Of a stretch of 64,000 nt of DNA, positions 2 through 968 are shown piece after piece. This DNA comes from a virus. A program made the translations under genes and the position numbers. Each line of letters starts with the position of its first letter. Positions within the stretch are counted from its first letter, which is position 1. The stretch lies in UHGV virus genome UHGV-0139776, one strand, 5' to 3'. The notes beneath the pieces were generated by a model. It saw only the letters and a list, made by a program, of their open reading frames with translations, was not told the DNA's origin and did no database searches.

Positions 2-760
2 CAAATCTTTCGCTATTTGCCAGAAGGGAAGCGCCTGATTGAACCTTTCGTTGGTGGCGGAGCTGTCTTCATGAATGCCGGATACCAGGAAAATCTGCTA
101 AATGATGTGAATGCTGACCTGATTAACTTTTACAAGACTCTGCAACGCGAGGCGCATTCACTTATCACTCTGGCACATCGTTTCTTCCAGGACTACAACA
201 CACAGGAAGGATACCTGGCAGTACGGAATGCGTTTAACAAACAAGTCTATGATGATTTACATCGCGCAGCGGCGTTTTTGTTCCTGAACCGACATTGTTT
301 TAACGGATTGACGCGTTACAACCAGGCCGGTGAGTTCAATGTCGGTTATGGGAAGTATAAAACTCCGTATTTCCCATTACAGGAGATGGAAGCCTTCCTC
401 GGTGCGGAAGGGCGGTCTGAGTTTGTATGCGGTGATTTTGCAGTGGTGATTGAAGCTGCCGGAGAAGGAGATGTCATCTTTTGCGATCCGCCGTATGAAC
501 CGCTTCCAAATACAGAGGGATTCACGAACTATTCCGGTCATGACTTTAAGTTTGAAGAGCAAAAACGCCTGGTGTCTCTGTTGACGGATGCTCATCGTCG
601 AGGTGCAAAGGTTCTCATTACTAACAGTGGCGCGCCAAATATCAGAGAGCTTTATCATGACAGTGGCTTCAGAGTGGAACCTCTTTTTGCCAGACGTTCT
701 GTGTCTTGTAAGGGGGACACTCGAGGTGTAGCTCATGACGTTTTAGGTATATTGCTCTAA
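2..760 (+). CDS. dmt: Dam-family N6-adenine DNA methyltransferase domain, 5' end outside window (P1 Dmt-like)
   Basis: ORF open to the window start; motifs EPFVGGGAVF (SAM-binding) and FCDPPY (catalytic) as in E. coli Dam. Confidence 0.8.
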   Translation, partial: QIFRYLPEGKRLIEPFVGGGAVFMNAGYQENLLNDVNADLINFYKTLQREAHSLITLAHRFFQDYNTQEGYLAVRNAFNKQVYDDLHRAAAFLFLNRHCFNGLTRYNQAGEFNVGYGKYKTPYFPLQEMEAFLGAEGRSEFVCGDFAVVIEAAGEGDVIFCDPPYEPLPNTEGFTNYSGHDFKFEEQKRLVSLLTDAHRRGAKVLITNSGAPNIRELYHDSGFRVEPLFARRSVSCKGDTRGVAHDVLGILL

Positions 761-767
761 TAAATTT
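751..767 (+). promoter_or_regulatory. C1 operator-like 17-mer ATTGCTCTAATAAATTT
   Basis: exact match to the asymmetric P1 C1 operator consensus; overlaps the dmt stop codon and precedes a TAATAT -10-like box. Confidence 0.7.
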
Positions 768-941
768 ATTAGTGTAATATCGCCTCAATGAATCGTGATT
801 TATAGAGCGATTTAGCTGTTAGCCGCGACAGGCGCGGCGGTAAGCATGGCTGGGCCTAGTCCTCCCAGACAAACCACCGAGTTGCCAGGTTGACCATGCG
901 CCTAAGTGGCAACTCCGAAGTGCGTTACGAGCTTCCAGTTT

Positions 942-968
942 GCCCATCTTCGGGTGGGCGTTTTTTTT
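942..968 (+). terminator. rho-independent terminator
   Basis: stem GCCCATC/GGTGGGC with UUCG tetraloop followed by a T8 run. Confidence 0.75.

Follow-up and report, generated by a model that had tools for sequence, protein, structure and literature searches.

The closest described counterpart of the element considered here, a control region and RNA leader at positions 751–968 of a 64,000-nucleotide (nt) viral DNA (UHGV virus genome UHGV-0139776, one strand, 5′ to 3′; this whole stretch is called the window below), is the dicF locus of prophage Qin in Escherichia coli K-12. In Qin, the small RNA (sRNA) DicF (Rfam family RF00039) arises in two ways: through termination and, from dicBF transcripts that have read through, by processing with RNase E and RNase III (PMC5069750). 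Its biogenesis has so far been described only in these terms. The other close counterpart is the ban control region of phage P1. The P1 record AF234172 marks the bivalent C1 operator Op72ab (Oban, Obanab), annotated as 'controls expression of ban', at the equivalent of 751–778, the promoter P1ban at the equivalent of 752–780 and a predicted promoter P2ban just upstream. It also contains a 102-bp misc_feature, 'dicF-like region', corresponding approximately to 875–976 of the window, and places the end of dmt at the equivalent of 760.

Across positions 700–1450, the window shares 99.7% identity with phage JL22 and 98.7% with phage P1; judged by its sequence, the window is a P1-type phage-plasmid. 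Region 751–968 comprises the control region of its ban operon together with the initial ~180 nt of that operon. The operator pair, the promoter hexamers and the gene order 3′ of the leader (tRNA-Asn, tRNA-Thr, tciABC, tRNA-Ile with anticodon CAU, and ban) are identical to those of P1. There is no difference in the control region; the T-run of the terminator is eight nucleotides long in the window and six in P1. The operator, the promoter and the similarity to dicF are all present in the P1 annotation, and no newly found gene is described here. The new element is a conserved structured domain of ~110 nt at 808–917, supported by covariation and without an Rfam family. Neither the P1 leader RNA nor the domain upstream of dicF was described in the literature searched, the P1 genome paper and Faubladier & Bouche 1994 lying outside it, and an RNA-seq preprint on P1vir and hfq makes no mention of the P1 leader RNA.

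The leader is of the dicF-locus type of prophage leader/sRNA cassette, placed here under C1 control and equipped with a terminator module that is not DicF. Both loci possess a homologous structured domain of ~95–110 nt (78% identity) immediately upstream of a terminator-ended small RNA module, followed by structured leader elements and genes whose expression depends on read-through; in each, the gene that comes next (dicB in Qin and tciA in the window) has an STnc100-like element in front of it. Thus placed, the P1 module matches the position of DicF, being located after the conserved domain, ending in an intrinsic terminator and lying inside an operon leader. However, the module was rejected as a DicF family member, as the Rfam model gave no match at E ≤ 1 in window 1–4000, while the Qin control scored 76.7 bits against a gathering score of 48. 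The terminator stems also differ (GCCCAUC/GGUGGGC in P1 and GGCGG/CCGCC in Qin), and the P1 module lacks the long single-stranded 5′ seed of DicF. In P1, only ~25 nt separate the unit from a promoter repressed by C1, and tRNA genes come after it, whereas the Qin unit follows ydfABC. Phage P1 and the lambdoid prophages, therefore, have in common the structured region upstream of dicF and the order of elements, but not DicF itself.

Further parallels are found in the put RNAs of phage HK022 (putL and putR; PMC9378689) and in phage RNAs made by termination. The put RNAs are cis-acting antiterminators, characterised by RNA polymerase binding and by suppression of downstream terminators independently of protein factors. 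Like put, the domain would be a nascent structured RNA of ~70–110 nt located in the leader of an early operon, upstream of terminators that have to be passed, and its phages, like HK022, have no obvious N protein (as far as the annotation of phage cdtI indicates). The put RNAs are composed of two stem-loops and a triplex (PMC9378689) and occur in two copies, whereas the domain has a multi-helix fold with a pseudoknot and occurs once per phage. StxS, made from PR′–tR′ in Stx phages (PMC7547250), and lambda 6S RNA are likewise short RNAs produced by termination near a phage promoter in operons that need read-through. Those RNAs, however, lie at the late promoter, where read-through is brought about by Q protein, while the promoter here is early and repressor-controlled and no antiterminator protein is known.

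Structure and covariation of the domain

An alignment of 74 distinct sequences from bacterial genomes and phages supports five helices, designated P0, P1, PB, PC and PA (Table 1). Helix cells are paired in 94.5% of cases, compared with 34–55% with slid partners, and 11 pairs are changed on both sides, a number reached by none of 500 shuffles. The P1-type copy forms helix P1, PB and PC, together with the pseudoknot helix PA, while the closing helix P0 is missing. The covariance model built for the domain (R1) finds exactly one copy in the window. The invariant stretches of the domain, GGCGCGGCGG(U/C)AAG, CAGGUUGA and CGCYURAG, are all present in it.

Table 1. Coordinates of the features of the ban control region and leader in the window
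Feature	Positions	Strand	Details
C1 operator Op72a (Obana)	751–767	+	perfect 17-mer ATTGCTCTAATAAATTT; motif scan and P1 annotation; covers the −35 of P1ban
C1 operator Op72b (Obanb)	762–778	−	inverted overlapping partner with 2 mismatches; motif and P1 annotation; covers part of the −10
Sigma-70 promoter P1ban	752–780	+	−35 TTGCTC 752–757, 17-nt spacer, −10 TAATAT 775–780; annotation transferred via 98.7% identity
Predicted terminated leader transcript	787–968	+	~182 nt; deduced from the promoter and terminator positions
Domain match to covariance model R1	808–929	+	92.5 bits, E 1.7e-30; structured core 822–915
Helix P1 (hairpin)	822–838	+	G822–G827 with C833–C838, loop ACAGG; 95.7% paired, no double changes
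Pseudoknot helix PA	844–899	+	GCAUGG 844–849 with CCAUGC 894–899; crosses PC; 100% paired
Helix PB (hairpin)	850–868	+	CUGGG 850–854 with CCCAG 864–868; 2 pairs double-changed; loop variable in length and sequence
Helix PC	879–915	+	9 bp, GAGUUGCCA 879–887 with UGGCAACUC 907–915; 6/9 pairs double-changed, 96% paired
Hairpin HP1	917–935	+	small, P1-specific, between domain and terminator; prediction only; conserved among P1-like phages
Intrinsic terminator	941–968	+	stem 942–948/953–959 (7–8 bp), UUCG loop, U8 tail 961–968

Helices PC, PB and P0 are well supported. An example of compensation in PC is the pair GGGUAACCA/UGGUUACCC in Izhakiella; the PC loop contains the invariant CAGGUUGA, the 3′ strand of PA and CGCYURAG. 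Helix PB reads CUGGG/CCCAG in P1 and CGGGG/CCCCG in Qin. P0 (UUGUGGY with RCYRCAA) was not found in the P1-type rows of the 74-sequence alignment; a weak alternative, GCUG 815–818 with CAGU 937–940, appears solely in the minimum-free-energy fold. Helices P1 and PA are probable. The 3′ strand of helix P1 lies within the near-invariant GGCGCGGCGG. Complementarity of PA (consensus GYAUGG with CCAURC, to which the window conforms) exists in all 74 sequences, but the search pattern fixed four of its six pairs. The one free pair is U–A in 68 sequences, U–G in four and C–G in two, and never C–A; the window has C–G in place of U–A. RNAalifold independently selects PA and PB. Four scans of viral contigs for PA variants, each excluding one consensus base of the 5′ strand, yielded 100 loci. 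Sixteen of these proved to be genuine members, every one with uncompensated single changes.

Comparison of phages P1 and P7 revealed compensatory differences in PB (CUGGG/CCCAG and CGGGG/CCCC, respectively) and in PA (GCAUGG/CCAUGC and GUAUGG/CCAUAC), with the loop nucleotides invariant, which indicates selection on structure within the P1 lineage. The folding energy of 786–970 is only mildly better than that of shuffled sequences (z-score −1.85), and the domain alone gives a z-score of −1.46. With a deviation this small for the whole leader, the evidence for its structure comes from comparison with relatives and not from energy.

Distribution of the domain and the modules that follow it

A sensitive BLAST search with 768–975 as the query found matches in 4243 of 5426 complete E. 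coli genomes (8604 places, up to seven per genome). The match was full-length in only 476 genomes, and the full-length records listed are replicons of ~95–125 kb, typical of P1-type plasmids; outside the full-length matches, 823–917 was aligned at ~78% identity. In K-12, the homologous segment is located in the Qin prophage between ydfC and dicB, with DicF beginning 25 nt after it and the STnc100-like leader of dicB next. The domain upstream of DicF is, thus, among the most widespread E. coli prophage RNA elements and has no Rfam family: at E ≤ 1, no family matched it in window 1–4000 or in the Qin region. Apart from the tRNAs and a sub-threshold STnc100 match (described below), only chance-level matches were obtained near the leader, such as tmRNA_permuted (956–1062, 26 bits against a gathering score of 47).

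When viral contigs and a single genome from each species were scanned with sequence patterns, ~140 loci were recovered, one of which (Billgrantia) was a chance match. Domain hosts include Escherichia, Shigella, Citrobacter, Trabulsiella, Serratia symbiotica, Erwinia tracheiphila and Izhakiella, and the domain is carried by phages cdtI, F1055, mEp460, Stx2c phages, P1 and P7. A single copy is present in the window, in cdtI and in each of 61 phage records. Model R1 found nothing in phage D6, elsewhere in cdtI or in HK022 22000–32000, the stretch expected to hold the early control region. Homology to put was rejected on the last of these results, and a second, putR-like copy was sought and not found in the window or in cdtI.

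The domain is followed at ~50–135 nt by a GC hairpin and a T-run in 134 of 137 loci, according to an automatic scan. Two of the remaining three have a hairpin and T-run by eye, and the third, from Shigella, is decayed. The module between the domain and the T-run is DicF in ~81 loci, of the cdtI type in ~16–19 and of the P1 type in 15, with at least five further types, one of which bears a Shine–Dalgarno sequence and an AUG in the hairpin loop. The domain is kept constant while the intervening module is swapped, and in P1 this module is reduced to a small hairpin. The P1-type module is nearly invariant among P1, P7 and their relatives. In five loci (L003, L012, L021, L023 and L024: F1055 and prophage copies from Serratia, Trabulsiella, Erwinia and Izhakiella), a strong Shine–Dalgarno sequence and AUGUUCU(A/G)CCG are found 70–110 nt after the domain, within the terminator hairpin loop. 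A coding role for this open reading frame (ORF) of the relatives was rejected, as it is only 11–43 amino acids (aa) long and not conserved.

Beyond the terminator, the same operon continues with dicB in Qin, with the tRNAs, tciA and ban in P1 and with orf39, yfdQ and onward to xis in cdtI, and read-through is therefore required in all three. Phage cdtI, which has no annotated N gene, carries a PL-like promoter after cI, and the domain is found ~280 nt downstream of this promoter. A boxA-like motif (GUGCUCUCUU, GUGCUCUCAG or AUGCUCUUUC) lies 3–4 nt 5′ of P0 in seven loci (L003, L006, L018, L021, L023, L024 and L053). It recalls the boxA/Nus sites of lambda nut and of rrn leaders: the form GCUCU(C/U)U stands directly 5′ of the domain in cdtI, F1055 and prophage copies from Trabulsiella, Erwinia and Izhakiella, and in rrn operons, too, a boxA-like motif heads a long, untranslated and highly structured leader. 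In contrast to those sites, Qin-type copies and P1 have degenerate versions of the motif (GUGCGCUUCC in the former; GAGCGAUUUAG, window 805–815, in the latter), and no N-like gene was seen.

Promoter, leader transcript and terminator

The perfect C1 operator reported in the earlier note on this DNA was confirmed; it is Op72a, and the window contains no second perfect match. Matches with up to three mismatches number 13 in the window, compared with 0.27 expected by chance. That note also placed the perfect operator over a TAATAT box. The box is the −10 element of P1ban, but it is the inverted partner Op72b that overlaps it, whereas the perfect operator covers the −35 element. The hexamers of P1ban match eight of 12 consensus positions, which is why a generic consensus scan left this promoter unlisted. 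Control of P1ban by C1 is supported by the operator and promoter annotation of the P1 record together with the matching sequence. Transcription would start near A787/A788.

The same note had proposed a repressor-regulated structured transcript of ~180 nt and had presented it as a small noncoding RNA between dmt and the tRNA cluster. The first part of this proposal is retained in substance: the promoter is C1-controlled according to the annotation and is followed by ~180 nt of noncoding, structured RNA extending to an intrinsic terminator. The second, taken to mean an independent sRNA gene, is not supported, the promoter being annotated as controlling ban; the RNA is the 5′ leader of the ban operon and not a separate gene. 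A discrete, C1-controlled, terminated RNA of ~180 nt is plausible, and the same segment, 787–968, would also form the 3′ end of any dmt read-through transcript. Of the local hairpins listed in the note, GCCGCG/CGCGGC and CUGGG/CCCAG proved to be real and coincide with conserved helices P1 and PB.

The strong terminator with a UUCG loop and eight Ts, noted earlier at 942–968, was also recovered and is the strongest terminator-like site in 500–3400. It begins 27 nt after helix PC and occupies the position of DicF in lambdoid prophages, although the module is not DicF; no terminator-like site was found between the dmt stop (760) and 941. As the tRNA genes, tciABC and ban are located beyond it, their transcription requires read-through. 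The T-run at 961–968 varies among P1-like elements, consisting of six residues in P1 and P7, seven in several others and eight in the window, and this polymorphism could tune termination efficiency. Phage D6, a relative of P1, retains the terminator and the downstream part with a different upstream region (L146, 1100–1530), which has neither Op72 nor the pseudoknot domain and contains other hairpins. The D6 upstream region also includes a GGGAGGCACCCCCGCUGCAAC stretch resembling STnc100 and the 3′ flank of P0.

Possible roles of the leader

The region is best explained, with moderate probability, as a C1-controlled leader of the ban operon that combines a cis-acting domain with a terminator. 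After inactivation of C1, RNA polymerase would start near 787, and a fraction of the transcripts would stop at 968, yielding a structured RNA of ~182 nt; dmt read-through would end at 968 as well. Other transcripts would pass 968 and proceed into tRNA-Asn and tRNA-Thr, the hairpin cassettes, tciABC, tRNA-Ile and ban. The domain would act in cis on its own transcript, setting the passage through the terminator as an antitermination or attenuation module. Cis action is judged the most likely role, since the pairing of domain and terminator is constant across very different phages while the module between them is swapped; control of termination is, nonetheless, assigned only tentatively. The next most likely role, less favoured, is that the domain directs the processing or stability of the terminator-ended RNA; the long perfect hairpins downstream in P1 would be plausible RNase III sites. 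A trans-acting RNA is unlikely, and a relic is somewhat less likely still. Alternative pairing between domain and terminator, of the riboswitch kind, was rejected after a visual comparison of P1-type and lambdoid copies, in which no pairing common to both classes was seen.

Judging by its context only, the domain might represent a cis-acting type of phage leader RNA that has not been described before and that would bring about antitermination through RNA, possibly employing the boxA-like motif and Nus factors; this assignment is doubtful. If it were true, early-operon transcription would pass an sRNA terminator in this way, and one promoter would supply both a terminated riboregulator and the downstream genes. 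For P1, the leader bears on how the C1/Op72-controlled ban operon expresses three tRNAs, tciABC and the Ban helicase past a strong terminator 180 nt from its promoter, and on whether prophage induction releases a structured RNA. Control of termination or processing by the domain would explain the swapping of small-RNA modules behind one constant platform in lambdoid prophages and P1. If the domain were inactive in P1, the finding would reduce to a known promoter and terminator.

Several observations weigh against the cis-acting leader. P1-type sequences are without P0, the outer helix seen in lambdoid copies, PA has one covarying pair only as well as 16 rare variants with uncompensated changes, and the folding energies given above are only marginally better than those of shuffles. 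P1 and Qin carry only poor versions of the boxA-like motif. Each phage has one copy of the domain, with none in the rightward operon of cdtI, while putL and putR are both present in HK022. The Qin copy of the domain stands in mid-operon, after ydfABC, and not beside the promoter. D6 keeps its terminator without the domain, so that the terminator can exist alone. The start site, the termination efficiency and the discrete 180-nt species are themselves inferred.

The leader might instead be a trans-acting, Hfq-dependent sRNA, functionally analogous to DicF, with the leader or an RNase E-cut 3′ fragment of ~50 nt pairing with mRNAs of host or phage after C1 inactivation. The position of the module after a homologous domain, its near-invariance among P1, P7 and relatives and the presence of alternative modules at the same position in other loci, like swappable seeds, are in keeping with such a function, as is the terminator hairpin, which has a U8 tail and is preceded by CAGUUU, an arrangement found in many Hfq sRNAs. 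Nevertheless, the DicF model has no match, the stretch between domain and terminator comprises only ~26 nt, mostly folded into HP1, with no single-stranded seed, and it lacks the AU-rich, single-stranded site for RNase E that DicF possesses. The module pairs with the ftsZ translation start region no better than shuffled sequences do (fraction 0.90), in a crude test that did not separate true DicF either (0.23). No convincing target was found within the window; the sole long complement, to the linker and the 5′ side of the terminator at 932–944, is a perfect 13-mer at 48197–48209, ~220 nt inside the plus-strand ORF 47978–49027. Such a match is expected ~0.08 times by chance and is probably a coincidence. 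This trans-acting function is accordingly rated improbable. A similar standing is given to a plain terminator or insulator that ends dmt (late) transcripts and damps leaky P1ban, the upstream homology being a functionless mosaic fragment in P1. The lack of any other terminator-like site after the dmt stop, the D6 arrangement, the absence of P0 from P1-type copies and the visibly mosaic make-up of the ban leader from lambdoid-prophage pieces (the STnc100-like element and hairpin cassettes) all fit a plain terminator; the P1/P7 compensatory changes in PB and PA with invariant loops, which point to selection on structure, and the score of the domain on model R1 do not.

A small protein-coding gene on either strand, as annotated in some phage records, is the least credible explanation and is considered highly improbable. 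The earlier note saw no plausible ORF after the operator, and this assessment holds: both strands contain short ORFs only, the longest being 819–983 on the minus strand (54 aa), with 890–1015 and 906–989 on the plus strand. Hypothetical proteins are annotated over the leader stretch in JL22, SJ46 and other phage records. The frame and extent of ORF 819–983 are, however, not conserved among P1-like relatives, as the T-run is six, seven or eight residues long and the hairpin loops contain indels; indels of 1–5 nt occur in the PB loop among homologues, and substitutions follow base-pair compensation.

Other elements of the ban leader

The untranslated ban leader contains an array of hairpin cassettes at 1146–1245, 1586–1680, ~1800–1880, 2005–2110 and 2284–2372, bordered by ACACAACAGGTAAGGGC ... 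GCCCTTACCGTTGTG(A/G)TGAATGC. Four of these were folded and have stems of ~20 bp, with z-scores of −4.4 to −7.1 against shuffles, while ~1800–1880 is recognised from the repeats alone. No Rfam match was found for the cassettes. Lambdoid phages have a cassette of this kind after their sRNA terminator (cdtI, L006:1668–1762). These long hairpins are possibly RNase III sites or module boundaries. Compared with P1 (L001:3886–4618), the window is ~196 nt longer between tRNA-Thr and tciA (1587–2515), which equals one cassette spacing.

Two cassettes include a conserved hairpin, GGG-(G/U)UCAUAU-CCC, at 2032–2056 and 2311–2335; its counterpart in cdtI (L006:1697–1715) is GGG-CUCAUAA-CCC. The 7-nt loop of this hairpin resembles a tRNA anticodon loop with CAU, and cassette 1586–1680 contains, instead, a T-arm-like GGGUUCGAAUCCC. 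Situated beside real tRNA genes, these parts may be tRNA remnants or mimics. As for the real genes, ARAGORN identified tRNA-Met (CAU) at 3224–3299, and P1 names the homologous gene tRNA-Ile2 (trnI, 89% identical to E. coli ileX). The P1 minus-strand genes plp and upl overlap the hairpin cassettes and, because of this overlap, may not be real genes.

Directly upstream of tciA, at 2362–2477, there is a sub-threshold match to STnc100 (42 bits against a gathering score of 47, E 6e-7). STnc100 also matches the dicB leader in Qin (L002:2671–2880), and the presence of this element in both shows the ban leader of P1 to be a mosaic, assembled from leader elements of lambdoid PL operons.

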